Source: Gammaproteobacteria bacterium
GTDB lineage: Bacteria > Pseudomonadota > Gammaproteobacteria > Eutrophobiales > Eutrophobiaceae
NCBI GenBank assembly: GCA_965116495.1
Contig: OZ220696.1
Span: forward strand, 3,424,001 to 3,488,000
Direction of reading: 5' to 3'
Length of the DNA: 64,000 bases
The translations under genes and the position numbers were made by a program. Positions 1,527 to 35,656 of the stretch are shown here, one piece after another (the first letter of the stretch is position 1; each line of letters begins with the position of its first letter). The notes beneath the pieces were generated by a model, which worked only from the letters and a program-made list of their open reading frames with translations, was not told where the DNA came from and did not search any database.

Positions 1527-2975
1527 TCAGAAGCTGTACGTGATATCAAAACCAAACAGATTTATCCAGCTGCCGAACGTGAAATCCTCGTCGCTGGTAA
1601 CGTTTGTCAACACACCGGGGCTGTCAAATGCAACTTTGGAGAAACCGCCCATGTTACGGCTCTCACCCGCTTTGATTGTTCGATCCTCGTAGAATACGCC
1701 TTGCCAACCTGCGGTAAGTGTCCAGCCGCGGCCATCTGAATTGGTCAGGTCATACGTGGCGCCGGCGCCTATCCAATGCCGATCACCCGACCAGAACAGG
1801 ACATCAATTGTTTCATCAGGCGCAGTTTCCGGATCATAGCGGTAACCGCCCAGGAGGGTCAGTTGGTCATTCAATCTGTATTGGACTCCTGCAGCAACCG
1901 CCAGGGTATCATCCCCTTCCCAGTCATAAGTCACGCCGGTGACACCATTGAGGGCGGGTCCGACCGGACCGACAAGACCGCTGAGTGGTTCACCGAATTT
2001 TATGTTGGCCCGTTTGCCGACGGCATCCGCGTCCGACCAGAACGTGTACTGCAAATCGACGGACCAGGTAAGCGCGTCATTGATATCGTAAGCAAAGCCG
2101 GCCTTGAGGTGGGCGGGCGTGTCGAAATCCAACTTCCAGGGCACGATTGACTTTCCCAGACCAAGAGGATTGTTGAAATCGATGGTCGCCTCTCCGTCAA
2201 AAGTAGTATCCTGCTCGCTGCGATAGGTCACGCCGATAGTCAGATCATCCGACACATCGTATTTTGCCCCGATGGTAAAGCCGATCTCATCAAAGGCCGG
2301 GTCGAACTGGAACGGAGGAACAAACAGGGGGAAATCCATCTCTGTCTCCAGGAGTATCCGTCCTACTATGAGCTCATTCGGTCCTGTATGGCCACCCAAT
2401 GCTGTGACCGGCACCAGCCTCTCTACAGTCAAATGTTTGAAAGCCACGATATTCAATGCGACGCCCACGTTAAGCCGGTCGGTAACTTCCATGCCTACGA
2501 CCGCCCCTAAATCAACGGTGAAGAAGGCCTGGTTGCTGAAACTGTACCGGTGAACACCCGCATCGTTTTCCCAATCTGCCGTCAAGGCAAACGGTACACC
2601 AAGGCCGACCCCTGCGGTAATCTTTTCACTGAGAGGAAGATAAATGCCTAAACCCGGGGCAGCGGCAATCTCACCGTTAACAGTTGTTGCTTCAACGTCA
2701 TAACTGCCGCCGGAGTCATCCATGGTTAACTGATTCGTGTCTACAAACCTGAGTCCCAGACTGATGACCGGCTTTTTGAATTCTGCAGCCCCGGCAGGAT
2801 TGACATACCAGGTACTTGCGTCTGCGGCAACGCCCTGGGTCGCGCCGGCCAGTGCACCCTCGCGGTTCGACATCCCCATTGTTTGGACGAAATCAGCGGA
2901 GGCACTTGCCGTATAACAGGTCAGTACTACGAGGCCAAACATACGTACAAAATTATTAGCAACTTTATATTTCAT
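1527..2975 (-). CDS. FadL/TodX/TbuX-family outer-membrane hydrophobic-compound channel
   Basis: Signal peptide, GALAGA..ADASTWYVNPAG motif, beta-strand pattern, C-terminal Phe; GGAGG upstream of ATG 2975. Confidence 0.85.
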   Translation of the reverse strand: MKYKVANNFVRMFGLVVLTCYTASASADFVQTMGMSNREGALAGATQGVAADASTWYVNPAGAAEFKKPVISLGLRFVDTNQLTMDDSGGSYDVEATTVNGEIAAAPGLGIYLPLSEKITAGVGLGVPFALTADWENDAGVHRYSFSNQAFFTVDLGAVVGMEVTDRLNVGVALNIVAFKHLTVERLVPVTALGGHTGPNELIVGRILLETEMDFPLFVPPFQFDPAFDEIGFTIGAKYDVSDDLTIGVTYRSEQDTTFDGEATIDFNNPLGLGKSIVPWKLDFDTPAHLKAGFAYDINDALTWSVDLQYTFWSDADAVGKRANIKFGEPLSGLVGPVGPALNGVTGVTYDWEGDDTLAVAAGVQYRLNDQLTLLGGYRYDPETAPDETIDVLFWSGDRHWIGAGATYDLTNSDGRGWTLTAGWQGVFYEDRTIKAGESRNMGGFSKVAFDSPGVLTNVTSDEDFTFGSWINLFGFDITYSF

Positions 2976-3140
2976 CATCTCCTCCAGGCAAACCATCACA
3001 AGTGTAAAACGATGTTGAAAACAACTTACCAGCGAAAACATACACAATAGTCTTATGGCATACCGAAATATTTGGTTCGATAAAGATTCGGGTGCCGTAG
3101 TTATAATCCTGTCTCATTTATTATTATAATACAATACACA

Positions 3141-3170
3141 TTATACACAATTATCCATTTTTATCCATAA
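3141..3170 (-). promoter_or_regulatory. 10-bp-phased TTATGGATAA-like repeat array, fadL/aldehyde dehydrogenase divergent region
   Basis: TTATACACAA TTATCCATTT TTATCCATAA on + strand. Confidence 0.55.
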
Positions 3171-3239
3171 TTAACTATTTTCTGAATAAGAACCCTGTTG
3201 TAATAGGGTATAATACCTAATCATACCTACCCAACAAAA

Positions 3240-4670
3240 ATGAGAGAAAAAATGGAAGCTGATGAGAAAGCAAAAGCACAGAGAGCGGAAGTTGCATCGC
3301 TGATTGAACAGGCAAAGTCTGCCCAGAGGGAAATTGGGAACTACACCCAGCAGCAGGTTGACGAACTTGTCACTGCAATCTGCTGGGCAATAGTGCGCCA
3401 GGACCGTGCTGAAGAGCTTGCCAGGATTGCCGTGGATGAAGGCGGGTTCGGCAACTACGACGACAAGGTGATGAAAATACGCAACCGCTGCATGGGTACG
3501 CTGGCAGACATGCAATCGGTTAAGACAGCCGGGATTATTGAGGAAGATCCTGACAGGGGATTGCTCAAAATCGCCAAGCCGGTTGGCGTGGTTGCGGCAT
3601 TGATACCGACAACCGGTCCGGATGCAACCCCTCCGTTAAAGACGCTGCTGGCGGTAAAGGGCCGCAATGCCATCATCGTTGCCGCCCATCCCCGCACCCA
3701 GCAGACTACCGAGTTGACCGTTAAATATATGCGTGAAGCCTGTGAACAGGCCGGTGTGTCGGCAGACCTGGTGCAGGTGATCCGGAAGCCGTCGCTTGGA
3801 AAGACACAGGCGCTGATGGAGATGGCTGATCTGGTGGTTGCCACAGGCGGCGCCGGCATGGTGAAAGCGGCTTACAGCTCCGGCACGCCGGCCTATGGCG
3901 TCGGCGTTGGCAACAGTGTGCATGTTGTTGATGAAACAGGAGATTTACAGGATGCGGCCAATGCTGTCACGGCTGCAAAAAAGTTTGACTACGCCACGTC
4001 CTGTCTTGCTGATAATGCCGTAATAGCGCATGATACGATTTATGATGATTTTGTCGGCAGGCTGAAAGAGATGGGAGGATATCTTTGCTCAGCCGATGAA
4101 AAAAGGCAGCTACAGGAGTTGATGTGGCCTGATCCTGACAATCATATACCTGCCCTGGAAATTATTGCCAAGCCCGCGACGACTATCGCAAAACTGGCAA
4201 ATATTGAGGTGCCGGATGATTGCGGCTACCTGATTGTGGAAGAGACGGGAGCGGGTCCGGATCATCCTTTCTCGGGAGAGAAGCTTTCTTCAGTGCTGGC
4301 GCTATACAAGTATTCAGGCGAAATAGACAACGCTATTGACCGGATAAATACAATCACAGATTACCAGGGGCAGGGTCATACCTGTGGTATCCATTCAAAG
4401 ACTGAGGAAAACATCATGGCGGTCGCGATGAACACCAAAACAGGCCGCGTCATGATCAACCAGAATCTTAACGAAGGTGCGGGTAGCCCGCGTAACGGGC
4501 TACCCTATACACTAAGCCTTAGTTGCGGTACCTGGGGTGGAAATATCACTACCGAAAATGTCAATGCGCGCCACATGATAAACGAGACCTGGGTATCAAG
4601 GCCCGTTACTCCACGGGCAATAGACGAAGAATCGCTGTTCTCGGAACATTGGGACAAGCATGGAAGGTAG
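3240..4670 (+). CDS. CoA-acylating aldehyde dehydrogenase (AdhE-N/EutE/SauS-like)
   Basis: KPVGVV, ATGGAGMVKAAYSSG, catalytic Cys in FDYATSC, GEKLS, LSCGTWGGN. Confidence 0.85.
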   Translation: MREKMEADEKAKAQRAEVASLIEQAKSAQREIGNYTQQQVDELVTAICWAIVRQDRAEELARIAVDEGGFGNYDDKVMKIRNRCMGTLADMQSVKTAGIIEEDPDRGLLKIAKPVGVVAALIPTTGPDATPPLKTLLAVKGRNAIIVAAHPRTQQTTELTVKYMREACEQAGVSADLVQVIRKPSLGKTQALMEMADLVVATGGAGMVKAAYSSGTPAYGVGVGNSVHVVDETGDLQDAANAVTAAKKFDYATSCLADNAVIAHDTIYDDFVGRLKEMGGYLCSADEKRQLQELMWPDPDNHIPALEIIAKPATTIAKLANIEVPDDCGYLIVEETGAGPDHPFSGEKLSSVLALYKYSGEIDNAIDRINTITDYQGQGHTCGIHSKTEENIMAVAMNTKTGRVMINQNLNEGAGSPRNGLPYTLSLSCGTWGGNITTENVNARHMINETWVSRPVTPRAIDEESLFSEHWDKHGR

Positions 4671-4707
4671 TGAGACAGTGCTGCGACAGTATTCCGGTAA
4701 TGATGGG

Positions 4708-4790: not shown

Positions 4791-5591
4791 ATGCCGGCAC
4801 AGAAGAAATTCCTTACTATCACCGAAGCAGCAGATTACCTTAAAGTCAGTAAAACCTCATTGCGACGCTGGACAAACAACGGCCGCCTCGCCTGTTATCG
4901 CGTCGGTCACCGCAATGAACGCCGATTCTTACTCGACGACCTCGTCGCCTTTATGGGTGAATCCATAGATACGGGCGATTATCAGGATGGTTCTCGAATT
5001 ACTGCATCCGACGCAACCCAACCTGTTAACCAAAGCGCCCGGGCCACACGTAAACATATCTGTACTTTTTTCAAGAGTCCCAAAGAACAGTGGGGCCTGT
5101 TGCGGATGCATCTGCTCGATCATCTCAACTCTGAAGCAAAAACCGTCTATATCTATCAACGGGATAAACAGCAACTGTTGAACTGGCTCAGGAACGAAGA
5201 CCTGGACCCGGAAGATTTGATTGATCGTGGCGTACTTGAATTGTATACCGATGCTGATACGTATTTGAAAGACGGCCACTTCAGTACCGATCGTATGTTG
5301 TCCTTCTGGCAGGATATCATTACCAGGCACGAGGCATCCGGCACCAAGAGGTTACTTCTTACGGGTGAGATGGGCTGGGCCAGCAGCGGCGTTATGGGCT
5401 GTGAACAACTGGTTCCGTACGAGGCAGCCCTGGACGCGATGCTGGAAGTTACCCCCTGGGTCAGCGTAATTTGTCAATATCCTGTCTACCAGTTCTCAGG
5501 TTCCACGGTATATGACAATTTGTGCGTACATACACACGTACAATTGGTTGATCGCCTGGACACCGGTTTCAGCCCGATCGGCACAAGCTGA
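4791..5591 (+). CDS. HTH_17 (excisionase/BldC-like) plus MEDS (DcmR-type sensor) regulator
   Basis: N-term LTITEAADYLKVSKTSLRRW..G.L...R.G...RRF; C-term HICTFF...TGEMGW...YEAAL...ICQY...HTH. Confidence 0.8.
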   Translation: MPAQKKFLTITEAADYLKVSKTSLRRWTNNGRLACYRVGHRNERRFLLDDLVAFMGESIDTGDYQDGSRITASDATQPVNQSARATRKHICTFFKSPKEQWGLLRMHLLDHLNSEAKTVYIYQRDKQQLLNWLRNEDLDPEDLIDRGVLELYTDADTYLKDGHFSTDRMLSFWQDIITRHEASGTKRLLLTGEMGWASSGVMGCEQLVPYEAALDAMLEVTPWVSVICQYPVYQFSGSTVYDNLCVHTHVQLVDRLDTGFSPIGTS

Positions 5592-5637: not shown

Positions 5638-7982
<2,345 letters not shown>

Positions 7983-8007: not shown

Positions 8008-8047
8008 TTATGGATAATTAATTATAGTTATGAATAATTATTTATAC
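8008..8047 (+). promoter_or_regulatory. Phased repeat array in the xecC/etnA divergent promoter
   Basis: TTATGGATAA 8008-8017 and TTATGAATAA 8028-8037; TTA recurs every 10 bp. Confidence 0.6.
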
Positions 8048-8158: not shown

Positions 8159-9172
8159 ATGAACGCTGCAAATTTGCCTGGTAATCGGCATTTCACCTGG
8201 TTTAAACCGGAAAGACGCAGACCCACAGATTACGAATCCTACACATTAGGACAACAGTCAGGCCCTCATCAATGGCTGGATGTTGATTGGCCCCTTTGTT
8301 TTGATGATGGTCAAGAGCCTTTCACAGAAGCTGCCTCAGAAATAATATGTACTACCTGGGATCAATTTCGTGATCCCATGAAAGTATGGCAAAGGCCTTA
8401 TGTCTCTCGAAACAACCATGAAGAGCAGGCACTGGACGGCATGACAAAACAGGCTTTGCAGGACGGTGTTGCCGACCGCATCAATCCTGTCTGGCGGGAT
8501 GAAATTCTGGGTAAGTATTATGCAGCATGGCCTTTTGTGGAGTATGGCCAATTTTTAGCGATATGTTATGCAGTACGGCAGGTACTGGATGCAACACTCA
8601 CGTTTTCGTTGGGGTTTCAAGCTACAGATAAAGTGCGCCATCAGCAGGATATTGTGCATCTGATTTTTGATTTAAAGGAAGCGTTACCCGGTTATTCCGA
8701 TGAACAAGCCAGGTCAGCCTGGATGAATTCTCCCGCGCTTGTTCCAACTCGTGAAATAACCGAACGCCTGATCGATTCCGATGACTGGGCGGAGATAGTC
8801 ATTGTTTTGGGGCTGGTGTTCGAGCCGCTCGTCGGAAATTTATTCAAAACCGAATTCATGACCAAGAATGCGCCCATAAATGGGGATGCAGTCACGCCCA
8901 TGATTCTGGCGAATGCGCGGCGTGACTCTAAATATCACCTGCAACTTGTTCAGGCAATTGTCAATATGGTTTTGGCTGACTCAAAACATGGAGCTGACAA
9001 TAAAAAGATTATTGGAAGCTGGCTGGTAAAATGGACACCGCTGTGCGAAACAGCAGCGCAGTCATTGCAAACGGTTTTCGAGATTGATGGAATTGATGCT
9101 GAACCTTTTGAACAGGGATTTACCCGGGTTAAAAACATGCAATCATCGCTGGTACAAGAGCTTGGACTTTAA
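8159..9172 (+). CDS. etnA: Alkene monooxygenase hydroxylase beta subunit
   Basis: FTWFKPERRRPTDYESYT, WDQFRDP, SDIMO beta features; operon order. Confidence 0.85.
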   Translation: MNAANLPGNRHFTWFKPERRRPTDYESYTLGQQSGPHQWLDVDWPLCFDDGQEPFTEAASEIICTTWDQFRDPMKVWQRPYVSRNNHEEQALDGMTKQALQDGVADRINPVWRDEILGKYYAAWPFVEYGQFLAICYAVRQVLDATLTFSLGFQATDKVRHQQDIVHLIFDLKEALPGYSDEQARSAWMNSPALVPTREITERLIDSDDWAEIVIVLGLVFEPLVGNLFKTEFMTKNAPINGDAVTPMILANARRDSKYHLQLVQAIVNMVLADSKHGADNKKIIGSWLVKWTPLCETAAQSLQTVFEIDGIDAEPFEQGFTRVKNMQSSLVQELGL

Positions 9173-9188
9173 ACGAGGAGATATAATT

Positions 9189-9488
9189 ATGATTTCAAAT
9201 AATAGTGTCGGTATCTCATTGATGAAAAGTGATGAAACACGTGCGACCCTGGAATACCTGGAAGAAAGTGCAAGTGATGCTCGCGTGAGTGATCGTGACT
9301 GTTATTACAAAGTTGAACGTGATAATAAACTTGAATTTGACATGGAAGGGATATCGGATTTCCTGGGCCGTGACCTTGATACGGATATTTTCCTGGTAAA
9401 TATGAGCTCTTACTATGGCCGAATTGTTGTTTCTGATGGAAAAGTTGAAATTTTCTCAGAAATAAAGCCCGAACGCTTCAACGACTGA
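9189..9488 (+). CDS. etnB: Monooxygenase coupling/effector protein (MmoB/DmpM family)
   Basis: VGISLMKSDE, VNMSSYYGRI; GAGGAG RBS supports ATG 9189. Confidence 0.88.
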   Translation: MISNNSVGISLMKSDETRATLEYLEESASDARVSDRDCYYKVERDNKLEFDMEGISDFLGRDLDTDIFLVNMSSYYGRIVVSDGKVEIFSEIKPERFND

Positions 9489-9501
9489 TGGGAGAGATTT
9501 A

Positions 9502-11016: not shown

Positions 11017-11019
11017 CGA

Positions 11020-11336: not shown

Positions 11337-11337
11337 A

Positions 11338-12400: not shown

Positions 12401-12449
12401 GTATGGATAATAGTGAATAGTTATGGACAAATAAACACAGCTTGGATAA
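12401..12449 (+). promoter_or_regulatory. Phased repeat array upstream of etnE
   Basis: GTATGGATAA TAGTGAATAG TTATGGACAA ... GCTTGGATAA. Confidence 0.6.
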
Positions 12450-13745: not shown

Positions 13746-13776
13746 GATGTTTTGCCTTATCCGCTTGTGAAAACTT

Positions 13777-18660: not shown

Positions 18661-18667
18661 AAAATCA

Positions 18668-20176: not shown

Positions 20177-20183
20177 AGACGGA

Positions 20184-22543: not shown

Positions 22544-22551
22544 CTATCCCC

Positions 22552-24712: not shown

Positions 24713-24719
24713 TGAGAGA

Positions 24720-27145: not shown

Positions 27146-27163
27146 AAACTTGTTAAGTTACCC

Positions 27164-27191
27164 GTCATTCCCGCGCACGCGGGAATCCAGT
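27164..27191 (+). repeat. REP-like palindrome
   Basis: GTCATTCCCGCGCACGCGGGAATCCAGT. Confidence 0.75.
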
Positions 27192-27211
27192 CACACATTT
27201 ACCTTATCCTC

Positions 27212-29035
27212 ATGTCCATCGATTGGCATAAAACCCGCGCCGTCATCCAATTCCTGTTTGTAACAACCGGCGTGCTGCTGTCCGCATCCATCGCGGTTGC
27301 ACTATTCGGTTATGTTCGCAGTTCTCCCGCCCATTACTCAAGCTTCGTGCTCGGCATCGTCATCATGTCAGGTCTGCTCGGCCTGCGAAACCTGCTGGAT
27401 GAGCACCTGCAGGACAACAGGGGCAGGTACTTTCACGTCAAAAGTGTCGTTGCCGTTGCCGGTTTTATCCTGGCTGCAACAGGCGCCGTCTACATCCGTT
27501 ACAACGTATCAAGGCTGGAGCTGATCCAGCCGTTTTTTGAGAACATCGACGTGGTTTACGGTTTGATTTTTACGGCCGGGATCCTGTTGCTCACCATGCT
27601 GCACTGGGGGCTCTTGCTTACCTCTATTATCGCAATGGCAATCGTCTATTTTTTTTACGGCCACCATATCGATAACGTCCTGTTTACCCATCCGCACTAC
27701 CAGACCGGCTTTGTTATGAACTATATCGGGCTGGGAACCACACAGGGCTTTTTCCTGTTGACGCAACTGGCCGCCGACAGTATTTATTTCCTGCTCATCT
27801 ATGCCAGTGTGCTGATCAGTATCGGCGCATTGCAGATGGCGCTGGAACTGGGCAAGGTATCAGGTAAAAAGGTGGCAGGTGGCGCCGCTTATCCGGCGAT
27901 CCTGGGCAGCGGGATCGTCGCCTCGGTGATGGGGCAGGCCGTATCCAACGTGGTGCTTACCGGCCGGTTTACCATACCCATGATGAAAAAAAACGGTTAT
28001 TCCGCGTCAATGGCCGGAGCTATAGAAGCGGTAGCCTCTACCGCGGGCCAGCTCATGCCGCCAATTCTGGGCTTGGCGGGTTTTTTGATCGCCGCGTTGC
28101 TCAACATTCCCTATATAAAGGTTGCAGGCGCCGCACTGTTACCGGCGTTGCTGTTTTTAACCGGCATATTCATCAGCGTGTCGCTATACGCAAGACGGCA
28201 ACAGATCCCGAAGCTGACTGATAATTTTGATGCCGGAAGCGTTATCAGGATTGCGCCTACTTTTGTTGTTTCGTTTGCCGTTGTCCTGATCATGTTGCTG
28301 ATGCACTACTCCCCATCCATCGCAGGGATGTGCGGGATCGCCGCTGCGTTGGCTCTGTCCATGTTCCAGGGCAGGTACAGGCCGACAGCAAAAAAGATTT
28401 TCGGCGCGCTGGAGGAAGGGTTCGTGCTCGTTACGCTGTTGTCGTTGCTGATTATCGCCATCGGTCCCCTTGGACAGACCATGATCACAACGAATTTATC
28501 CGGACGTCTCGGTTCAGTCCTGGTCAATATCCTGCCGGATGCCCCGTTACTTCTGCTGGTCGGGGCCATGGTCATCACGCTCATACTGGGCATGGGCCTG
28601 CCTACCCCCGTCGCTTACGTCGTGACGGCCCTTGCAGTGGTGCCGTTTCTGCAGCAACTGGGGTTCCCTGCGTTTCAGTCGCACTTCTTCGTGTTTTATT
28701 TTGCCGTGTTCTCAACGCTGACGCTGCCCATTGCCGTTGGGGTGCTGGCTGCGGCCAAACTGGCCGGCTCCAGGTTCATCCCCACCGCCGTCAATGCGTT
28801 AAAATTGACTTTTCCGGTTTTTCTTATTCCCTTCGCGGTGATCTACAACCCGGAACTCTCCATGATTGACGACTGGACCTGGCGCACGCCTGTGTTGTTC
28901 GCAGCCCTGGTTGTTATCCAGGCATGCATTGCAGCCGCTATATTCGGTCCGGCCTCCGGACATTCCAGGCCGGCTCAGCGGGCATTCCTCCTGCTTGTTT
29001 CCTTAGCGGGCTTTTATTTCTTGTTTTTGAGCTGA
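27212..29035 (+). CDS. TRAP transporter fused permease (4TM/12TM type)
   Basis: TIPMMKKNGY..AGAIEAVASTAGQLMPP, LGMGLPT, HFFVFYF. Confidence 0.88.
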   Translation: MSIDWHKTRAVIQFLFVTTGVLLSASIAVALFGYVRSSPAHYSSFVLGIVIMSGLLGLRNLLDEHLQDNRGRYFHVKSVVAVAGFILAATGAVYIRYNVSRLELIQPFFENIDVVYGLIFTAGILLLTMLHWGLLLTSIIAMAIVYFFYGHHIDNVLFTHPHYQTGFVMNYIGLGTTQGFFLLTQLAADSIYFLLIYASVLISIGALQMALELGKVSGKKVAGGAAYPAILGSGIVASVMGQAVSNVVLTGRFTIPMMKKNGYSASMAGAIEAVASTAGQLMPPILGLAGFLIAALLNIPYIKVAGAALLPALLFLTGIFISVSLYARRQQIPKLTDNFDAGSVIRIAPTFVVSFAVVLIMLLMHYSPSIAGMCGIAAALALSMFQGRYRPTAKKIFGALEEGFVLVTLLSLLIIAIGPLGQTMITTNLSGRLGSVLVNILPDAPLLLLVGAMVITLILGMGLPTPVAYVVTALAVVPFLQQLGFPAFQSHFFVFYFAVFSTLTLPIAVGVLAAAKLAGSRFIPTAVNALKLTFPVFLIPFAVIYNPELSMIDDWTWRTPVLFAALVVIQACIAAAIFGPASGHSRPAQRAFLLLVSLAGFYFLFLS

Positions 29036-29063: not shown

Positions 29064-29306
29064 CTATGACCGGTGAAGGGCATCATCCGGCTTGGCGCAG
29101 CACGGGTCACTCTGCTGTATCGGCGGGCATTTAACCGTGCCGTAGGAACAGAATACACAACAGTCGCCCGGTTTTGGCTTCAACAACGTATCGCAGTTTT
29201 CGCACTGGTAAAACCACTGGCAGGCATCAGCCGGCATTATTTCCGTTTTTTTGTGGTTACAGCCAGGGCATGTAATCTCTGATTCCAGCGTGACGAACCG
29301 GTCTAT
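29064..29306 (-). CDS. GDCCVxC-domain Cys-rich protein, no canonical start codon (possible pseudogene)
   Basis: Hand translation: ..LESEITCPGCNHKKTEIMPADACQWFYQCENCDTLLKPKPGDCCVFCSYGTVKCPPIQ..CC; first codon ATA overlaps the upstream TAA. Confidence 0.75.
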   Translation of the reverse strand: MDRFVTLESEITCPGCNHKKTEIMPADACQWFYQCENCDTLLKPKPGDCCVFCSYGTVKCPPIQQSDPCCAKPDDALHRS

Positions 29307-30064
29307 TACTGTTTCCGTGATAAATACTTTACCGGAACGGCAAAGGATATGACACCGATAGCTATTCCAAGGAGCCAGTTCAGAATGCCGTTATCCCCGC
29401 CATACCGGTTGGGGTTTCTTGCCGCGGTGAGCCCGGGAATGGCGGGTATGTCGCCACTGCCGTTGCCCACCACGAGCTGGGCCTTCATGCCTTTTTCCAT
29501 GTGGGCAGCCATGTCACAGTGGACCAGGTAGGTCTTGTCATCGCTGGGAACGATGAACGTTCCTGTCTTGCTGAAGCCGCCGTTGGTCTCAAGGTGGAAC
29601 ATGCTCTGCGGGTACAGGTAACTGGGCAGACCGTGTACCATCCATTGGTGCCTGACATCATCCTCGTTGGTATATGTCACGGTGATGCGTGAACAGGGTT
29701 TGACGCGCCACTGGTGTTGATTGAAGCCGAATGTCCTGTCCGGATAAGGCGCTGCATACTTCTTGCCGGCCGACACGCTGATTTCCACGTCCTCAGAAAT
29801 CGCGCGGCAATCGCGCGGCAGTTCATCCCTGTTTTCATTCATCACCATGCCTTCCATGTCCAGTTTCATGTTGCCGCAGGCGCCTTCGCCGCAGCGTCCT
29901 TCACCGCACATGCCTTCGCTATCCATGTCCATCCGGCTGTTTTTTTCAACCTCCTCAAGCTGGAAGGGGTTTTGTTCCGCACTAACGCCGGGCTGGGACC
30001 ACGGGTTGACCAGGATGGAGGCCGTAACCAGGGCCAGGGGATTTAATGCCTGTTTAATCTTCAT
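29306..30064 (-). CDS. Exported, membrane-anchored cupredoxin with N-terminal EGxCG repeats
   Basis: Type-1 Cu ligands H(QWMVH)..C-x4-H-x4-M; signal peptide; C-terminal TM helix. Confidence 0.8.
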   Translation of the reverse strand: MKIKQALNPLALVTASILVNPWSQPGVSAEQNPFQLEEVEKNSRMDMDSEGMCGEGRCGEGACGNMKLDMEGMVMNENRDELPRDCRAISEDVEISVSAGKKYAAPYPDRTFGFNQHQWRVKPCSRITVTYTNEDDVRHQWMVHGLPSYLYPQSMFHLETNGGFSKTGTFIVPSDDKTYLVHCDMAAHMEKGMKAQLVVGNGSGDIPAIPGLTAARNPNRYGGDNGILNWLLGIAIGVISFAVPVKYLSRKQ

Positions 30065-31751
30065 TCTTTCTCACCGTCCGGATGAGCAGGATTGTCACGG
30101 CAAGAAACAGCCCCGCCGTGATTGCAAACAGGATCATCCTGCCCGGCAGCGCCGTTTGTTCCTCAAGGTCGGAAAACCGTCCCCCGGGGTCCATATCACC
30201 CCAGACGGGTACCTGGCGCCGGTAGTATTCCTGGTTGAAAAACAGGGACAGGTCCCCCGCCGTTTCAGGAATCCCGTCCTCTCCCAGGAACTTCTCATAG
30301 ACAATCATGCTGATATCCCCGCCGGGGTTCATGCCGTCGGTAGTCACTGCCTGCTCACGATGGTCGTGGATGAACCAGACCCCCTCCCCGTAACTGTGCA
30401 GGCCGTCATTAACTGTATTCAATTCGAGGTCCAGGCGCTGGGCCGCGCTCAGCCATACGACGTCCCGCGTCACCCGGGCAACCGGGTTCTGTTCGACGCC
30501 GTCGTAATGGGTAATGGTGACCTTGTGGCCGTGGGTGTGCAGTGATACGCCCTCAGCCCCGGCATTGAGGACGCGCAGTTTTATTTTTTCATCCGGTTTG
30601 ACCAGTACCAGGGATTCACGCATGGTGTAGGGGAAAGAACGCCCGTTAAGCAGGAAGTATTCGGGAACGCGCCCGGTGGTGTTGTATTCGCGGTTGGTTG
30701 CTTTAGCGATGAACCGGGGGTCGCTGCTCTGTTGTATGAGTTCATGTAATTCCTTATCCGCTTCGCTGTACTGCAGGTCGTATTCCCTTGCATAGTTTTC
30801 CCTGACGGCGGCAGACGGGTAACGGACGTGACCGGCGCCCACGTTGAATGTCTGCACCCGGTTGTCCGGACGGTTCTCTTCGACGACGAACATGCCCTGC
30901 AGTCCCATCAACACGTGTACCTGTGGTTGCACATGACAATGGTAGAACATGGTGCCGGTCTGCCGCGGCGTCATGTCATAAGTCCGGCTCTCACCGGGCA
31001 TGATCATCATCTCACTAATCCTGGGAACACCGTCGTTGCCTTCTCCCTGCGCATCCTGGTAGGGGTGGTCCACGCCATGAAAGTGAATGGTATGCGGCAT
31101 ATAGTGGGTATTTTCCAGGGTGACCCTCAGTCGATCGCCCTGTTCGATCCGGATCACCGGAGACGGCAGGCGCAGCATCTCGTTAGCCTCGATGCTTTCG
31201 AAGTTGACCGTAGCCATCCCCCGCTGTTTGGGGGTGAACACCCAGAATCCGGGCTGGATACCCGGGGCGACGGAGTAGGCAGGAATAAACTCTTTCATAT
31301 CAGGAGAATGACCGTTCAATTCGGTTACTTCCAGGCGGATATGGATATCGTCGGGGTCACCGTCGTTGTCGATATCGTTTTCCTTGACAACAGCATCCGG
31401 GGCAAGCTGTGTACGCATCAGGACAGGCATTGACACATTATTCGTTCCCTTGACAAAAGCGGCGATTTCGGCGGGATTATCCGGCTGGCACAGTCCTGAT
31501 TCCTGGATCCTGAGCCCGTCAACCAGTTGTTCTGTGCGCCAGTTCCGGTTAACCGGCGGGCACGTCTCTTCGGGTTCAAGTAATAAGTCTGCCTGGCTCG
31601 CAGGCGCCGGGATATAGCCGCGCCCACCGAATATATCGAAATAATCCTGCTGCAGACCCGACGGTATCCAGTTGACCGGAACCAGGTAAACCAGGCAAAC
31701 AAGTAAAACAAGATTGATTATCGACAGTGTAATAACACGCTTATGCCGCAT
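30054..31751 (-). CDS. Multicopper oxidase
   Basis: HTIHFHG, FYHCHV..HV.MG, HTHGH, HDH. Confidence 0.88.
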   Translation of the reverse strand: MRHKRVITLSIINLVLLVCLVYLVPVNWIPSGLQQDYFDIFGGRGYIPAPASQADLLLEPEETCPPVNRNWRTEQLVDGLRIQESGLCQPDNPAEIAAFVKGTNNVSMPVLMRTQLAPDAVVKENDIDNDGDPDDIHIRLEVTELNGHSPDMKEFIPAYSVAPGIQPGFWVFTPKQRGMATVNFESIEANEMLRLPSPVIRIEQGDRLRVTLENTHYMPHTIHFHGVDHPYQDAQGEGNDGVPRISEMMIMPGESRTYDMTPRQTGTMFYHCHVQPQVHVLMGLQGMFVVEENRPDNRVQTFNVGAGHVRYPSAAVRENYAREYDLQYSEADKELHELIQQSSDPRFIAKATNREYNTTGRVPEYFLLNGRSFPYTMRESLVLVKPDEKIKLRVLNAGAEGVSLHTHGHKVTITHYDGVEQNPVARVTRDVVWLSAAQRLDLELNTVNDGLHSYGEGVWFIHDHREQAVTTDGMNPGGDISMIVYEKFLGEDGIPETAGDLSLFFNQEYYRRQVPVWGDMDPGGRFSDLEEQTALPGRMILFAITAGLFLAVTILLIRTVRKNED

Positions 31752-31822: not shown

Positions 31823-32437
31823 TCAGGAAGCCTGCTGTTTCTCCTTTCTCTCTTTTTCCTGTTTTTTTACGGTATACCACATCACCAGGCCGGCTGAGAC
31901 AAGCAGTATGGTGAACCACATGCGTGAAGGATTAAATCCGTCAACTCCCAACCCGTAACCGACACCGAAAGGGAATACGGAGATGTATTCTTTGTCGTTA
32001 GGAATATCGTCAACCTTGACCATACCGATAAAACGGCCGGGTTCGGTGAAGTTGTATTCAACATTGAATGAGCCCGTTCTCCTCAACTCTGAGGGGAGGT
32101 AATAGACGGTATTCCGTTCTATATCAGTTTCACTGCCCAGGTCGTCTAATGTTGCGTAATTGCCGATATCGTTGACATCTTCAATGATACGGAAATCTAT
32201 CGCCATATCCCGTAATTGATTATCGATGTAGTCCAGGACAATAATGGCGCTGCCCACGTTGGGTATGTCCTCGCAGAACTCTTCACTCTGGGTTTGCTCA
32301 GGTTGGAAACCGGTAAAATGCATGAGATAAGGACCTGCCTTCAGCACGCACATATCATCCTCGATAGCCACGCCGCCGTGTGCCAGCACGGTCTGGGAGA
32401 GAAAACTGCAGCAGAAAATAATCAGTAACAGGCGCAT
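31823..32437 (-). CDS. pmoD: PmoD/AmoD-family copper protein
   Basis: AHGG...DMCVL...MHFTGFQP...FCEDIP, C-terminal TM helix; directly after CuMMO B. Confidence 0.85.
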   Translation of the reverse strand: MRLLLIIFCCSFLSQTVLAHGGVAIEDDMCVLKAGPYLMHFTGFQPEQTQSEEFCEDIPNVGSAIIVLDYIDNQLRDMAIDFRIIEDVNDIGNYATLDDLGSETDIERNTVYYLPSELRRTGSFNVEYNFTEPGRFIGMVKVDDIPNDKEYISVFPFGVGYGLGVDGFNPSRMWFTILLVSAGLVMWYTVKKQEKERKEKQQAS

Positions 32438-32496: not shown

Positions 32497-32518
32497 GGTC
32501 AAGGATAACAGGGTTTGT

Positions 32519-33748
32519 TCAAATGGCAGTGAACGTCGGAATTAACGGACCGCCGAATGTCTGCTTATGGCGTTTACCGTTTTCATCATAGAAAAACAGC
32601 ATGCCGCCGAAGCGGCTGTCCGGATCGTATATCAGCAACGCGAGGCGTTCCGTCTCCCAGGCGGCATCAGTTGCAACGATATTCAGGGTCCTTGTCTCAC
32701 CCGGCTGTATGGGCGTGTCGCTGTCGACTTCCAGTCCGTTCAGGGCGATCAGGTCCTGGGGATACGGACCGACATCCGGGGCAACATCCGCGTTCAACCA
32801 GCGGATAGATGCCGTCGCGAATTCACCCAGCCTTACCGGGCTGGTGGCCCCGTTGGTCACATTGACAGTCATCCTGACGCTGCGGCCGGGAATATCATAA
32901 TGGGCTTCCTGCAATTCGACCTCAACCACATCCTCGTCGACAGGTAACGGGTTCAGCTCCATCAGGCCCGCCTGCAGGGGAACGGTGATCGGGAATTTAT
33001 CGATGGTGCTGAAGTAACCGTAGAATATTAACGCCAGCGTGAGAATTCCCAGTCCCATTCCTACTTTTCTATCCATGGGCGTAATCAGTTCATCTTCCCG
33101 CCCCTGGCGCAACAGGATATTCCTGCCGGCCAACAACGGTCTGCGCAGCCACCATACCAGCCAGAACGCGGCGAGGAGCGCCCATAATATGTGCCAGTTG
33201 CGTACCCTGCTCCAACCCCAGGTCTCAAGATCCACCGTTTCGCCTGTCAAGGTGGTCACGGGGTTCGTGAAGTCGGCAGCGTCGCCTGTTATCTCGACCC
33301 AGTTGCCCGGGCCGGCATTCGGTCCACCATCTTTTATATTGAGCATGGGATGGAGATGGTGCATGCCGGGACGGCGCGCCTTCATCACAATTTTATACTC
33401 GTAGTCCCGGCCGAGTTCGTAACTGGCGGAGCGCACCATCGGTTTGCCGTTTACCCAGACACCTTTTCGGACAAACACCGGACCGGGGACGTATACGTGC
33501 ATGAAAGCAACGTCGGGTTTGGCGATGGCTTCCGGCCAGCCGGTATGCAGGTGAAATTTACCCGACAGGACCACTTCCTCATTGACAGCCACCTTATCCG
33601 TGGACCATTTCGTATCGTACCATTGGACGCTGAGCATGCGCAGGAATGGTTCCTGGGAGCGTTCACCGTGGGCGTTCACCAGTGATGCAGGCGCAATCGA
33701 CAGCAGGATTAATGAAATAATACCCAGGTTTGTAATTTTACGTCTCAT
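32519..33748 (-). CDS. pmoB: Copper membrane monooxygenase subunit B (PmoB/AmoB family)
   Basis: Mature N-terminus HGERSQEPFLRM, HxH CuB ligands, DPDSRFGG. Confidence 0.93.
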   Translation of the reverse strand: MRRKITNLGIISLILLSIAPASLVNAHGERSQEPFLRMLSVQWYDTKWSTDKVAVNEEVVLSGKFHLHTGWPEAIAKPDVAFMHVYVPGPVFVRKGVWVNGKPMVRSASYELGRDYEYKIVMKARRPGMHHLHPMLNIKDGGPNAGPGNWVEITGDAADFTNPVTTLTGETVDLETWGWSRVRNWHILWALLAAFWLVWWLRRPLLAGRNILLRQGREDELITPMDRKVGMGLGILTLALIFYGYFSTIDKFPITVPLQAGLMELNPLPVDEDVVEVELQEAHYDIPGRSVRMTVNVTNGATSPVRLGEFATASIRWLNADVAPDVGPYPQDLIALNGLEVDSDTPIQPGETRTLNIVATDAAWETERLALLIYDPDSRFGGMLFFYDENGKRHKQTFGGPLIPTFTAI

Positions 33749-33818
33749 TTTATCTTCCTCGTATTTTCATCAACTCAGTTTATTTTTACACTTGTTATTC
33801 AGGTCGCGGCAGGGTGAA

Positions 33819-34565
33819 TCAAACCCTGCCTTTAATGAACTTGACCGAAGCGACAAGTTTTGCAAACTGGTTGAAGACAAAATAAACGAGAATGCAGGCA
33901 AAGGCGCAGAAAAAGGCCGACACCGGTGTCACGTCCTGGCCGAACGTTCGCAGTGTTCCTTTCTCTATTATTCGAATATATTCCGGCGTACCCGTCCGGA
34001 TATATTCAAACCCCTGCACATCAGCAATCGACATCAGGACACCGTGATAATCGACGGGCAAGTGGAACGCGCCCAGCATATACCACTGGGATGGATAAAA
34101 CAGGATGCCCCATGACCAGGCTCCCAGTACGGCAGTCAGCACGTAGCTGTTGGTAAACATCAGGACCAGATCGAGAATGATGGCGCTGGGGAGCAATGTA
34201 CCGGGCCAGACAAAATTCAACGGATAGTACACCCAGCCGGCGAAGTTGTTGACCCTGTCAATCCACTGGCCCAGCAACAGGCACACCACCATCAGGGTGG
34301 CGCCAAAGGGGACACGGCAATGCTGCCACAGGATATACTGGCCCACAACGGGAAAGACAAGGGTGGACAGCGGAACGACGAATAACCACCAGCGGCGGTC
34401 CTTCCAGTCAGTCCAGAAAGTCCAGTCACCGACCGATAACATCTGGTGCAGGTGGTGGATGCCGGTCAGCAGGGTTAAGAAAATAAAAACGAGGATATAG
34501 TCAAATGCTCGGTGTACTCGATAAGCTTCTGCATAGGAATCAACGCCAGGCGCCACTGTTCTCAT
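33819..34565 (-). CDS. pmoA: Copper membrane monooxygenase subunit A (PmoA/AmoA family)
   Basis: GDWTFWTDWKDRRWW, YIRTGTPEYIRIIEKGTLRTFG. Confidence 0.93.
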   Translation of the reverse strand: MRTVAPGVDSYAEAYRVHRAFDYILVFIFLTLLTGIHHLHQMLSVGDWTFWTDWKDRRWWLFVVPLSTLVFPVVGQYILWQHCRVPFGATLMVVCLLLGQWIDRVNNFAGWVYYPLNFVWPGTLLPSAIILDLVLMFTNSYVLTAVLGAWSWGILFYPSQWYMLGAFHLPVDYHGVLMSIADVQGFEYIRTGTPEYIRIIEKGTLRTFGQDVTPVSAFFCAFACILVYFVFNQFAKLVASVKFIKGRV

Positions 34566-34617
34566 AGCTACTCCCCCTTCGTCAAAAAATCAGCCATAGT
34601 TTACTTCTTTGTTTACG

Positions 34618-34656
34618 AAAAAAAAACCGCCGGCGTGTAACCTAAGCCGGCGGTTT
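34618..34656 (-). terminator. Intrinsic terminator/attenuator between CuMMO C and A
   Basis: AAACCGCCGGC / GCCGGCGGTTT stem with A9 run (U-tail on minus strand). Confidence 0.7.
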
Positions 34657-34670
34657 CTCACACAGCTACT

Positions 34671-35495
34671 TCAGTCCACCATATCGTGGTGATGCGGCAT
34701 GGGCTCATTCGTTATTTCCTTAGCTTCGAAATTCGTAAGCTGGGTTATACGATACATGAGTTGCAGCATCAAGCCACCCAGGGCAAGACCGGTCCAGGAC
34801 AGAGTCACAAACCCCCAGTGCAACGGGGCGCTGAACAACTCTTCCATAAACCAGAATGTGTGGCCCCATTCATTCAGGCCGACATTCGGCAGAATGAGAA
34901 AGGGTCCGACAACCGCAATGGTATGAGGTAATGAAATACCCTCTGCGAACTGCGGCAGCCTGGTTCTGGCATAGAGCCACGAGCCTACACCCAGGATGAT
35001 ATATACAGGGAAGCTCAAGTAGAACAGAATGATATGGCTGGGCGTGAAATCGGAATCCCGAATCACGGTCTGGTGCCATGCACCGTCCTGCTCCGCGAAG
35101 TAACTGGCAGCCCAATATACAGCATAGGTGTAACAGGCCAGCCACACCAGCAGCTTGAAGTGGCGACGGATCTCTTCCATCGGCTCCAGTTGGTCAAGGT
35201 GGCGATCCCTGGTTTTCCAGAGATAGCCCCAAATGCCAAAAGCAGCTATCGCGCCAACGGCAACTTCCGCATAGAACAGACTCATCCAGTAAGCCTGGAA
35301 ATCCATAGAGAAAGAGTCCAGACCTTTAGTCCATGCGAAGACCTGCTCATAGATTCTGACCGCGACATACATCAAAGTGATGAATGCCACACCAAAAAGC
35401 CAGTGAGCGCCGTTGATGATACCTTTAAAGCTGGTGAGGATCGGCTTTGGCTGATCTGCCTGATATTGAGCAACCGCTTCTGTAGTTGCTGACAT
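34671..35495 (-). CDS. pmoC: Copper membrane monooxygenase subunit C (PmoC/AmoC family)
   Basis: EQDGAWHQ..RDSDFTPSH, PNVGLNEWGHTFWFMEELF..PLHWGF; AGGAGG RBS supports ATG 35495. Confidence 0.94.
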   Translation of the reverse strand: MSATTEAVAQYQADQPKPILTSFKGIINGAHWLFGVAFITLMYVAVRIYEQVFAWTKGLDSFSMDFQAYWMSLFYAEVAVGAIAAFGIWGYLWKTRDRHLDQLEPMEEIRRHFKLLVWLACYTYAVYWAASYFAEQDGAWHQTVIRDSDFTPSHIILFYLSFPVYIILGVGSWLYARTRLPQFAEGISLPHTIAVVGPFLILPNVGLNEWGHTFWFMEELFSAPLHWGFVTLSWTGLALGGLMLQLMYRITQLTNFEAKEITNEPMPHHHDMVD

Positions 35496-35626
35496 AAGAT
35501 ATCCTCCTAACTTAAGGTTAAACAACAATTTGTCGACAAATCATCGTCCTTATCCGAGGCCAGCGGTGCAAAAATACAATCGCCCCCCCGGCGCATAATT
35601 TCCAGAGTTTCAGCCGGTTAAGACTG

Positions 35627-35656
35627 ATTTGGATAACTATGGATAACGACGATTAA
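35627..35656 (+). promoter_or_regulatory. Phased repeat array upstream of the CuMMO operon
   Basis: ATTTGGATAA CTATGGATAA CGACGATTAA. Confidence 0.55.

Follow-up and report, generated by a model that had tools for sequence, protein, structure and literature searches.

A 45-kb genomic island joins an alkene monooxygenase, the epoxide/coenzyme M pathway and a copper monooxygenase under one predicted hydrocarbon-sensing switch

Why should one bacterium keep two unrelated hydrocarbon monooxygenases, one with di-iron and one with copper, beside a single coenzyme M (CoM) pathway of epoxide degradation? The question is raised by a window of 64,000 nucleotides (assembly GCA_965116495.1, contig OZ220696.1, positions 3,424,001 to 3,488,000), whose uncultured host is likely associated with sponges and is a marine gammaproteobacterium that, as its genes suggest, oxidises methanol. 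In the reading developed here the iron enzyme would serve alkenes, the copper enzyme (CuMMO) small alkanes, and one HTH-MEDS regulator would be the switch; taken as a whole, we give it an even chance.

Both enzymes lie in a 45-kb chromosomal island (1527-46568) that is not a chimera (Table 1). The alkene/CoM and CuMMO genes named in the initial annotation are all present, intact and in place, but the region delimited there (1527..35656) is not the full element. The long plus-strand run does end at 29035, although fadL, xecD, and xecC are on the minus strand; the converging gene 28 bp away, at 29064, is the GDCCVxC ORF, whereas the cupredoxin gene ends at 29306, 270 bp off. Gene order across the 29-kb junction is conserved in G014, G015, and G016, which speaks against a chimeric join, and G007 carries both halves on two short contigs. 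Among 23 genomes of the genus, the alkene monooxygenase alpha subunit (SDIMO alpha), EtnE, and XmoA occur together in the same five and none occurs alone (0/23), in agreement with the single unit in a Gram-negative host proposed earlier. On the RpoB tree, three changes explain this pattern across the four positives placed. The right part is absent from the empty sites of G001, G019, G020, and G022, and in G015 and G016 fadL comes after the AraC gene of the empty site, which marks the left end. The SCO-cox end is present without the rest in G004 and G009. The filler at the 29-kb junction differs between genomes, the TRAP/cupredoxin gap of relatives spanning 1.0-2.9 kb with merT/merP-like genes (named by reading the sequences). 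Island genes are under purifying selection, and only etnA, etnC, and xmoD/B/A/C have a dS <0.2 in both the G015 and G016 comparisons. The alkene/CoM genes and the CuMMO are almost certainly one inherited unit.

Table 1. Features of the island (positions in the window). Invariance refers to the five island genomes, which are kin.
Feature	Position	Strand	Evidence
FadL/TodX outer-membrane hydrocarbon channel, left island end	1527..2999	-	PF03349 E 4e-41
Four 10-bp-phased TTATCCA-like repeats, predicted HTH-MEDS operator	3141..3177	+	upstream of aldDH -10-like box TATAAT at 3209; invariant 5/5
Acylating aldehyde dehydrogenase (aldDH, SauS-like)	3240..4670	+	NF047625 512 bits, under cut-off 600; 66% to JS614, 63-72% to methanotroph-order clusters
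HTH_17-MEDS one-component regulator	4791..5591	+	PF12728 + PF14417
XecD, (R)-hydroxypropyl-CoM dehydrogenase, in inserted cassette	5638..6390	-	best match R-HPCDH 2cfc E 1e-102; R152, R196, S142/Y155/K159 conserved
XecC, 2-ketopropyl-CoM oxidoreductase/carboxylase, in inserted cassette	6387..7961	-	2-KPCC 1mo9 E 1e-241; 65% to Py2; catalytic C85/C90, F502/H507 conserved
Phased repeat array, divergent xecC/etnA promoter	8011..8037	-	half-sites 8017, 8037 kept in 5/5
Alkene monooxygenase beta subunit	8159..9172	+	PF02332; 45% to NBB4 pmo cluster
Coupling protein	9189..9488	+	PF02406; start set by RBS
Alkene monooxygenase alpha subunit, SDIMO group 4, propene (PmoC/AmoC) side	9502..11016	+	tree; 67.5% to NBB4 plasmid PmoC vs 55% to EtnC
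Monooxygenase reductase	11338..12357	+	Fer2/FAD/NAD domains
Three phased repeats, etnE promoter	12404..12430	-	within 34-bp block invariant 5/5
EtnE/XecA epoxyalkane:CoM transferase	12579..13691	+	HIC216, DCG338; tree; 69% Py2 XecA, 71% Haliea ETY-M, 81% Methylosarcina MAG
XecE, (S)-hydroxypropyl-CoM dehydrogenase type	14122..14892	+	best match 4gh5 (which we take to be the S-HPCDH structure) E 7e-74; 62% to Py2 Xaut_5050
Two-subunit CoA transferase	15090..16866	+	PF01144; 51%/44% to NBB4 and JS614
CoM biosynthesis xcbA-comA(xcbB)-xcbC-xcbD-xcbE	16887..22543	+	NF052538, TIGR03849, NF052535, NF052536, NF052537, all above NCBIfam cut-offs
Acetate-CoA ligase family protein + CoA-disulfide-reductase-like oxidoreductase	22661..26084	+	counterparts in JS614, NBB4, methanotroph-order clusters
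TAXI-TRAP transporter	26081..29035	+	TIGR02122, TIGR02123
GDCCVxC-domain small metal-binding protein	29064..29306	-	NF041374 108 bits, cut-off 40
Membrane-anchored cupredoxin + multicopper oxidase	29306..31751	-	PF07731/PF07732; copper motifs
PmoD homologue	31823..32437	-	6cpd E 6e-15
xmoC-xmoA-xmoB, putative new CuMMO lineage	32519..35495	-	PF04896/PF02461/PF04744
Three phased repeats, two perfect TTATCCA, predicted repressing operator	35630..35656	-	just downstream of xmoC -10 box; both perfect ones invariant 5/5
Near-consensus sigma-70 promoter of xmoCAB, TTGACT-18-TATACT	35660..35689	-	10/12 matches; both hexamers invariant 5/5
Sorbosone-dehydrogenase-like, YcxB, MutS-domain protein, hydrolase, DUF2231, small membrane proteins, SCO, heme-copper oxidase subunits I + II	35788..46568	-	island remainder

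The alkene half has precedents: it is an epoxide/CoM cluster of methanotroph type into which a cassette of xecD-xecC and group-4, propene-type etnABCD is inserted. Indeed, the backbone (aldDH-MEDS-etnE-SDR-CoA transferase-xcbA-comA-xcbCDE) has the same order in four methanotroph-order genomes (G619, G428, G436, and G637), and xecD-xecC-etnABCD occupies exactly the slot between MEDS and etnE. Canonical pmoA was found in these four and in G467 (5/5), and an alkene monooxygenase match in none of the five. The SDIMO genes (8159-12357) are ordered beta-coupling-alpha-reductase and encode the di-iron ligands E95, DEIRH124-128, E189, and DEARH222-226; the comparison with SDIMO groups that had been called for is what assigned the alpha subunit. 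In its tree, EtnE clusters with the Methylosarcina sequence and not with that of Haliea ETY-M. Alkene use through the CoM pathway is predicted with high confidence; the substrate of the TAXI-TRAP transporter may, as a guess, be CoM or some sulfonate.

The CuMMO resembles proteobacterial pMMO in its C-A-B order, its PmoD, the conservation of all Cu ligands (CuB, CuC, and CuD), and its best PDB matches. Conversely, XmoA is only 50-55% identical to pMMO subunit A (and at most 58% to any homologue outside the genus), and the genes are single copy, within an accessory island. The top XmoC matches are Cycloclasticus (61-65%). The XmoC+XmoA tree places the enzyme as sister to the pMMO clade with support 91/83, the bootstrap of 91 being below the usual bar of 95, and the XmoA-only tree places it differently, near Binataceae-named clusters. 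AU tests rejected joining it to Cycloclasticus (p 0.043), nesting it within gammaproteobacterial pMMO (p 4e-6), and placing it in the marine clade nearest the ammonia-oxidiser type, a candidate Haliea-like clade (p 0.009). The enzyme falls in neither the canonical methanotroph nor the nitrifier clades, as the initial annotation had supposed. These results suggest a new lineage, weakly sister to pMMO. At the position of HmoC-A151, XmoC carries Asp, the small-substrate state (PMC13058606). It is without the Glu that most named pMMO sequences have in the SHIIEFY motif, and in the CuC loop Leu stands in place of the Glu of pMMO; in XmoA, Thr replaces the otherwise invariant Asp49. The lineage has three mismatches to primer A189f. 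Judging from sequence, the enzyme is rather more probably than otherwise a hydroxylase mainly of small alkanes or methane. Methane is a tentative candidate for its first substrate and C2-C4 compounds a somewhat weaker one, and action on alkenes is predicted only doubtfully.

The host genus encodes XoxF/H4MPT/serine-cycle methylotrophy, a feature that, like the weak branching with pMMO, had escaped the initial annotation. XoxF, of the lanthanide type by best PDB match, and malate thiokinase above cut-off are each found in 22/23 genomes, with fhcC/D and fch present and fae in 5/5. Both XoxF and the serine cycle occur throughout the genus and are therefore independent of the CuMMO; XoxF with a formaldehyde-assimilation route is also what pMMO methanotrophs have. 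Because of this methylotrophy and the weak pMMO-sister branching, alkene epoxidation is no likelier a role for the CuMMO than an alkane/methane one. Contigs from RNA libraries cover xmoC, A, and B and none of the adjoining genes in 24-38 kb, the stretch through which the runs were found; two of these runs look like one dataset. This coverage, which concerns that stretch, is not proof of reciprocal control.

The HTH-MEDS protein, of a hydrocarbon-sensor type, is the only regulator identified in the island, and its homologues adjoin etnE clusters in methanotroph-order genomes. Phased TTATCCA repeats (10 bp) are common to the aldDH, etnA, etnE, and xmoC promoters. The perfect TTATCCA tandem occurs only twice in 4.34 Mb, both times at island promoters, and in none of the 18 genomes without the island; phased sites number six in the island and five in the remaining 4.3 Mb. 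The four promoters hold seven perfect half-sites against 0.36 in shuffles, for a motif found post hoc and with the etnE region added after the genome scan, and a count of seven for any 7-mer common to all four was reached in 1/400 shuffles. In unrelated MEDS-etnE clusters, similar arrays exceed all 100 shuffles in four of nine promoter regions and none is found in the other five. The shared repeat suggests that one hydrocarbon sensor controls both enzymes, which gives their co-regulation support at the sequence level; a shared regulator for alkene genes and CuMMO is probable. For reciprocal rather than joint induction, predicted from site position alone, the chances are balanced. The best reading predicts a switch that answers to substrate and not to copper.

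Under this substrate switch, EtnABCD is predicted to epoxidise propene to epoxypropane. Following the established pathway, EtnE would convert it to (R)/(S)-2-hydroxypropyl-CoM, XecD/XecE would form 2-ketopropyl-CoM and XecC acetoacetate, while the aldehyde dehydrogenase, CoA transferase, and ligase of the ethene branch would lead to acetyl-CoA and XcbA-E would supply CoM. The near-consensus promoter would keep xmoCAB on by default, and the copper enzyme would hydroxylate small alkanes, with methane and ethane the likeliest, its alcohol products passing to XoxF and other PQQ dehydrogenases of the host. Epoxides from co-oxidation may be removed by the island's CoM pathway, as in methanotrophs. 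With bound alkene or epoxide, MEDS would activate aldDH, etnA, and etnE, where the repeats lie upstream of weak promoters, and would damp xmoCAB, where they lie just downstream of the -10 box.

The CuMMO may instead be an alkene epoxidase like that of Haliea ETY-M, the two enzymes being co-induced by MEDS, both feeding EtnE, and being set apart by their affinity or by whether they prefer ethene or propene. We regard this as possible but not probable. A shared operator at xmoC, etnA, and etnE fits it equally well; the CuMMO never occurs without EtnE in the genus, the genes with low dS look as if swept together, the downstream genes are of ethene type despite a propene-type SDIMO, and EaCoMT of ETY-M shares a transcript with the emo cluster, as stated in PMC6440738. 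Yet both the EtnE clustering and the AU rejection of the candidate Haliea-like clade point away from ETY-M, the backbone is a detoxification cluster in pMMO methanotrophs, and xmoCAB converges on the CoM run and is not co-transcribed with it.

The initial annotation had raised the possibility of a copper switch of the pMMO/sMMO kind. Acting on one substrate, the copper enzyme would then serve where copper is at hand and the iron enzyme where it is lacking. Copper and iron monooxygenases do share the island, together with PmoD, multicopper oxidase, cupredoxin, and SCO (and merT/merP(-merR)-like genes in relatives), but the SDIMO belongs, with its four genes and no MmoD, to the group-4 alkene enzymes and not to group-3 sMMO, no regulator of the copper response was recognised in the island of G000, and the sensor suggested by the shared site is one for hydrocarbons; we consider this very unlikely. 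It is also improbable, if less so, that the halves merely share an integration site, the CuMMO serving an unrelated substrate (ammonia, thioether, or halomethane) and the repeats being chance or DnaA-like; TTATCCA resembles a DnaA box. Unrelated cargo (MutS-domain, hydrolase, and oxidase genes), the cox end by itself, and the variable filler would fit, and enzymes of the AMO type act on thioethers and halocarbons (PMC13058606). Against this stand the genus-wide absence of either monooxygenase without the other, the enrichment of phased sites in the island, and the lack in G000 of proteins with at least four CxxCH motifs; no HAO-family match was found in five genomes, in a search without a positive control.

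The initial annotation knew of no described cluster with this combination. The full set was indeed not found in the literature searched, but parts of it are published. PE-TB08W (Halieaceae) is a Gram-negative strain with a group-4 enzyme and Py2-type epoxide/CoM genes (PMC6440738; PMC11825192). Compared by description only, this marine gammaproteobacterium resembles the island in joining a four-gene, propene-type monooxygenase of actinobacterial type to EaCoMT, 2-KPCC, R/S-HPCDH, and CoM genes; a pmo-like gene was not detected there by Southern and PCR (PMC6440738), whereas here the CuMMO operon, ethene-branch genes, and HTH-MEDS regulator lie in one island. According to PMC4036023 and PMC6440738, the marine gammaproteobacteria Haliea ETY-M/ETY-NAG link a CuMMO to EaCoMT, and a mmoX-like gene was not amplified from them; in the comparison made here, which is of EtnE, the ETY-M sequence belongs to another clade. 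Some pMMO methanotrophs, for example Methylohalobius crimeensis, have epoxyethane/CoM clusters, a 13-gene type set with HTH-MEDS, and in a pMMO methanotroph such a cluster is induced by ethylene (PMC11507031). The island has this type of set, the backbone order of the four methanotroph-order genomes, and likewise a CuMMO in its genome. In those genomes canonical pmoA lies elsewhere on the chromosome; the island differs in its inserted alkene monooxygenase cassette and in holding a non-canonical CuMMO with a shared promoter repeat. In Mycolicibacterium chubuense NBB4, too, one replicon, pMYCCH.01, carries a group-4 propene monooxygenase, CoM genes, and a CuMMO, but a distance of ~170 kb lies between pmo (126-129 kb) and hmo (572-575 kb), which have regulators of their own (PMC8784404), and its HmoA is of a different clade (41% identity to XmoA). 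What is new here is the CuMMO lineage, the methylotrophy of the host genus, and the phased repeats at four promoters. If the proposed reading is true, the host would be an alkene user, with methane or ethane as possible further substrates, that standard pmoA surveys miss.

The alkene/coenzyme M (CoM) genes and the converging CuMMO operon belong to one 45-kb island for light hydrocarbons, which is real and conserved, is inherited as a unit and is probably regulated as one. Family scans of the window bore out the gene list of the initial annotation, and the catalytic residues of the di-iron subunit, EtnE, XecC, and XecD, as well as the three copper sites, are retained. The source genome (G000) is a single contig of 4.34 Mb, 99.5% complete. 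SDIMO alpha, the hydroxylase of the alkene monooxygenase, was found at 94-100% identity in five of the genus's 23 genomes (G000, G007, G014, G015, and G016), and EtnE (90-100%) and CuMMO subunit A were found in the same five; no such match to the three proteins was detected in the other 18, several of which are incomplete.

Features of the island and of related host loci (window coordinates, or G000:C1 contig coordinates where so marked)
Feature	Position	Remark
Whole island	1527-46568	fadL to cox2
fadL (-), acylating aldehyde dehydrogenase (aldDH), HTH_17-MEDS regulator, xecD + xecC (-)		left-to-right start; family scans
Perfect TTATCCA tandem before aldDH	3151-3167	
Half-sites before etnA	8017, 8037	
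Four-gene di-iron monooxygenase (etnABCD)	8159-12357	beta-coupling-alpha-reductase; family scans
Half-sites before etnE	12410, 12430	
etnE, xecE, CoA transferase A/B		middle of alkene half; family scans
Short Cys-rich unannotated reading frame	13775-13968	etnE-xecE gap
xcbA-comA-xcbC-xcbD-xcbE, acetate-CoA ligase, CoA-disulfide-reductase-like protein, TAXI-TRAP pair	ends 29035	right part of alkene half
Short dispersed repeats	27161-27190, 37098-37193	also in G000 intergenic regions
Small GDCCVxC gene	ends 29064	converging operon
xmoC-A-B, PmoD homologue, multicopper oxidase, cupredoxin	ends 29306 (cupredoxin)	converging operon
xmoA	33819-34565	
Perfect TTATCCA tandem before xmoC	35630-35646	
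MutS-domain protein	37984-39570	528 aa, membrane segment
Divergent two-subunit heme-copper oxidase + SCO	43377-46568	subunit I 479 aa
Type I restriction-modification cassette, YhcG nuclease, PIN-domain protein (1198 aa)	49902-59722	low GC
Methylotrophy loci	G000:C1:3880494-3907117, 3984401-3992558	L109, L117
Methylotrophy locus	G000:C1:1157379-1158935	L107
Toluene-type + phenol-type di-iron monooxygenase operon	G000:C1:575177-589402	types by reading

A chimeric join near 29 kb had been named as a threat to this picture. The gene order across that junction is complete in three other genomes (G014, G015, and G016), which rules out an assembly artefact; a further locus spanning the join (L110) was left uncounted, since it possibly comes from one of these three assemblies. 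The contigs of one sequencing run (X5) are fragmented, and none among the pieces listed bridges the join. The borders were set by comparing empty and filled sites: a TonB receptor-nitrilase-AraC trio adjoins boxB in G001, G019, and G022, and the same AraC gene adjoins fadL in G015 and G016 (names by reading), therefore the island runs from fadL to cox2. In G004 and G009 only its SCO-cox end is present at the site.

On an RpoB tree covering 22 genomes (G016 gave no rpoB match), the four island-positive genomes need three changes; gain or loss of the block therefore happened more than once, with the two monooxygenases staying together. The dN/dS ratio was 0.03-0.20 in all 28 island genes measured. 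Only etnA, etnC, and xmoD/B/A/C had dS below 0.2 against both G015 and G016 (rpoB, 0.85 against G015; boxB/boxC, 0.58-0.68), a sign that both enzyme cores were exchanged recently. At E 1e-80, EtnE was matched in 1/400 genomes of an even sample of the class, G000 itself, and a metagenome scan returned one locus. No CuMMO lies within 10 kb of a group-4 enzyme in 15 loci from genomes outside the genus or in the regions of Mycolicibacterium chubuense NBB4 and Nocardioides JS614. The plasmid of NBB4 carries enzymes of both types, but they lie 170 kb from each other and have separate regulators (PMC8784404), in contrast to the single 45-kb unit found here.

Several other features of the region were noted. 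By reading, the copper operon has merT/merP-like genes behind it in G014, G015, and G016 (L024, L027, and L030), with merR too in G015; between the cupredoxin and TRAP genes, G000 has the GDCCVxC gene alone and G016 adds a DUF262-like ORF. The heme-copper oxidase scores far under standard CoxA cut-offs, occurs in 6/23 genomes (two without the monooxygenases), and may be of a high-affinity type. The MutS-domain protein was found in the island only, and the Cys-rich frame is possibly a zinc-ribbon regulator. The restriction-modification cassette sits between boxC and an aldehyde oxidoreductase, where it is missing in G014 and G015. An Rfam scan of window positions 1-48000 gave no hits.

The alkene half represents a type of system that is already known. 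Its monooxygenase has the gene order that defines SDIMO group 4 (PMC11825192), and its alpha subunit shares 67.5% identity with the propene enzyme of the NBB4 plasmid (PmoC) and 55% with EtnC. The tree against the SDIMO groups proposed in the initial annotation, which we built without R. ruber B-276 and PE-TB08W AmoC, placed it within the group-4 clade (96*), on the non-Etn, propene-side branch (98*), with two Myxococcota MAG sequences as nearest neighbours. By gene order, alpha-subunit identity (threshold 50% to members), and clade it belongs to group 4, and it would epoxidise C2-C4 alkenes. Group 4 is presented in PMC11825192 as actinobacterial with one exception, the Halieaceae strain PE-TB08W being the sole Gram-negative case given there. 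Group-4-type enzymes 62-73% identical to SDIMO alpha also occur in Myxococcota and Chloroflexota MAGs (L038, L039, and L049), and no etnE lies within the fetched flanks of the two Myxococcota loci.

The CoM epoxide carboxylase set is complete (XecA/C/D/E and XcbA-E, with catalytic residues), and its genes resemble those of Xanthobacter Py2 (EtnE 69%, XecC 65%, XecD and XecE 62%). The same mosaic of a group-4 enzyme and Py2-like epoxide genes is described for PE-TB08W, a marine gammaproteobacterium (PMC6440738). The island backbone lies even closer to clusters of methanotrophs. In the EtnE tree, the island protein groups with a Methylosarcina sequence (81%), apart from Haliea ETY-M (71%), and a search for the MEDS regulator in 401 genomes of one methanotroph order gave a match in 10. 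Four methanotroph-order genomes (G619, G428, G436, and G637) share with the island the order aldDH-MEDS-etnE-(SDR)-CoA transferase-xcbA-comA-xcbC-xcbD-xcbE but, unlike it, have no xecD-xecC-etnABCD between MEDS and etnE. These four and G467 all carry canonical pmoA (5/5), and none gave an alkene monooxygenase match (0/5). A similar cluster is reported to be ethylene-induced in a pMMO methanotroph unable to grow on ethylene (PMC11507031). Third-position GC is lower in the hydroxylase and reductase genes of the propene cassette (0.43-0.54 vs 0.64). The simplest history would be that a methanotroph-type epoxide-clearing cluster was upgraded by an inserted propene cassette. Other HTH-MEDS homologues (44-53%) occur at methanotroph-order loci L167, L168, L169, and L171, with no etnE/epoxide cluster within the fetched 20 kb.

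The converging operon encodes subunits C, A, and B with all three copper sites of the CuMMO superfamily (XmoB H27/H131/H133, XmoC D148/H152/H165 and N219/H223/H237 for CuB, CuC, and CuD), and its sequence marks it as a new lineage. Beyond its own 50-member cluster, XmoA shares no more than 58% identity with the 119 other listed homologues, and searching representatives with a profile brought in no close relative. Of its ten nearest clusters two are named Binataceae and none Haliea, and no named Emo sequence was among the homologues returned. In an XmoA-only FastTree it forms a long branch near Binataceae-named clusters, outside the methanotroph clade. It is sister to the pMMO clade in the XmoC tree (SH 86) and in a 22-row XmoC+XmoA tree (91/83), in which database subunits were matched by the length of their contigs; G063 loci were excluded from all trees. 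The trees suggested in the initial annotation set the enzyme apart from ammonia-oxidiser rows and, at most, beside the canonical pMMO clade. AU tests rejected its nesting in gammaproteobacterial pMMO (p 4e-6) and its union with an unnamed marine clade (p 0.009); rejection of one clade with Cycloclasticus was marginal (p 0.043), though the best XmoC database matches are Cycloclasticus. Among solved structures, the best matches of subunits A and C were pMMO before AMO.

At the position of Ala151 in the butane enzyme HmoC, XmoC has an Asp, as has Cycloclasticus XmoC; the Ala151-to-Asp change in HmoC is reported to hurt butane oxidation more than ethane oxidation (PMC13058606). XmoC also has a Leu in place of the Glu of most pMMO rows. 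In XmoA, a Thr replaces the near-invariant Asp of GDWDFW (among 120 homologues, Thr in 1, Asp in 114, and 5 unmatched), therefore all five island genomes have three mismatches to primer A189f (sequence from PMC4036023; wide use from PMC4678205).

Small alkanes including methane are the somewhat favoured CuMMO substrate, and an alkene substrate is less likely. Ammonia oxidation could be suggested by NCBIfam AmoA/B/C_BACT matches, but these are not diagnostic, the same names being given to Methylomonas and Methylosinus proteins, and the enzyme is 39-44% identical to ammonia-oxidiser-type rows. A nitrifier host was ruled out, with no multiheme protein in G000 and no HAO-family match in five genomes (in a search without a positive control), and so was a RuMP methanotroph, with no hps above cut-off. 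A RuBisCO motif had no match in G000. The copper switch of pMMO/sMMO type proposed in the initial annotation for the two enzymes is unlikely, as the SDIMO is a four-gene group-4 enzyme, not a group-3 sMMO, and MmoD is absent.

The host genus looks like an undescribed gammaproteobacterial lineage of lanthanide XoxF/H4MPT/serine-cycle methylotrophs. Lanthanide-type XoxF is present in 22/23 genomes, with a XoxJ-like protein and fhcC/D as neighbours; fae and fch are present; and malate thiokinase is above cut-off in 22/23, beside a malyl-CoA-lyase-family gene, in a run read as sga-mcl-mtkAB-hpr-ppc. As in hosts of pMMO, methanol dehydrogenase, formaldehyde oxidation, and assimilation are all encoded (XoxF, fae, fhc, fch, and malate thiokinase); with further PQQ dehydrogenases, all steps after methane or ethane hydroxylation are thus in place. 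A comparable case is reported for a methylotroph family whose divergent CuMMO was not assigned a substrate (bioRxiv 10.1101/2025.02.04.636526), and a similar argument was made for Binatota (PMC8262859). Elsewhere in G000, the toluene/phenol-type operon is accompanied by a catechol dioxygenase and a sigma-54 regulator; distant alpha subunits of these types occur in most genus genomes.

Comparison of the three main intergenic regions of the island revealed a common word, TTATCCA. A perfect tandem of this word, with a period of 10 bp, is present at two positions of the genome, before aldDH and before xmoC. The 12 matches across the genus are confined to the five island genomes, with none in the other 18; 10 of them lie at aldDH/xmoC promoters, and the two extra ones (G014 and G015), outside the island in unrelated contexts, were put down to chance. 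Phased half-sites also precede etnA and etnE, conserved within alignments otherwise 74-86% identical. The four promoter regions hold 7 perfect half-sites vs 0.36 in dinucleotide shuffles (0/3000 had as many); allowing any 7-mer common to all four, 1/400 shuffles equalled the observed count. Such a tandem is shared by 529/574,056 intergenic pairs, and nearly all those shown belong to one repeat family. A dispersed family with core ATCTGCG occupies many G000 intergenic regions.

With the island matrix, arrays beat all 100 shuffles in 4/9 regions before aldDH/etnE in unrelated MEDS clusters, and the other 5/9 had no significant array (mononucleotide shuffles, a weak control). The MEDS regulator has an excisionase-type HTH_17 domain with weak wHTH matches in a PDB search, and BldC, a related wHTH protein, is described as binding direct repeats head to tail (PMC5859096). 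The TTATCCA repeats are a candidate MEDS operator. At aldDH, they precede a -10-like box whose -35 is poor; the xmoC promoter is near-consensus, and there the repeats come after the -10, at a distance of 14-30 bases. From these positions we infer that the MEDS sensor would activate the aldDH, etnA, and etnE promoters and would damp xmoCAB from sites downstream of its -10.

Part of the 27-36 kb stretch is present in 20 runs from nine studies, most of them with coded organism labels. Three RNA libraries yielded contigs, 90-99% alike, over xmoC, xmoA, and xmoB and over no neighbouring gene within 24-38 kb; the runs were found with this stretch as query, two of the three look like one dataset, and the contigs are not proof of transcription. 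A sponge metagenome label, carried by one RNA run only, is a lead to a sponge association.

The full combination, which the initial annotation held to be undescribed, was not found in the openly licensed literature searched (main texts), which gave only the separate precedents. Each half has published precedent; within that literature, what appears new is their union in one island, a CuMMO lineage beside pMMO, and the putative shared operator. As given in the respective sources, sponge surveys found bacterial CuMMO in Binatota only (PMC8163846 and PMC9999580), and growth on ethylene is not known for any methanotroph (PMC11507031). A fuller scenario is speculative and less likely than not: sponge-associated XoxF/serine-cycle methylotrophs would have turned methanotrophic via a new pMMO-sister CuMMO overlooked by standard pmoA primers, and an alkene-sensing switch would turn the CuMMO down and the propene monooxygenase and CoM pathway up, so that one cell would grow on methane as well as alkenes and switch by substrate, not by copper.

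The mixture of pMMO-like and non-pMMO residues in this CuMMO gives a handle on what sets substrate choice in the family, the six-gene cassette between MEDS and etnE on how epoxide-detoxification clusters become alkene growth pathways, and the named 10-bp repeat on what HTH-MEDS regulators bind. If methane is a substrate, these bacteria would be a hidden methane sink in sponge-type microbiomes.
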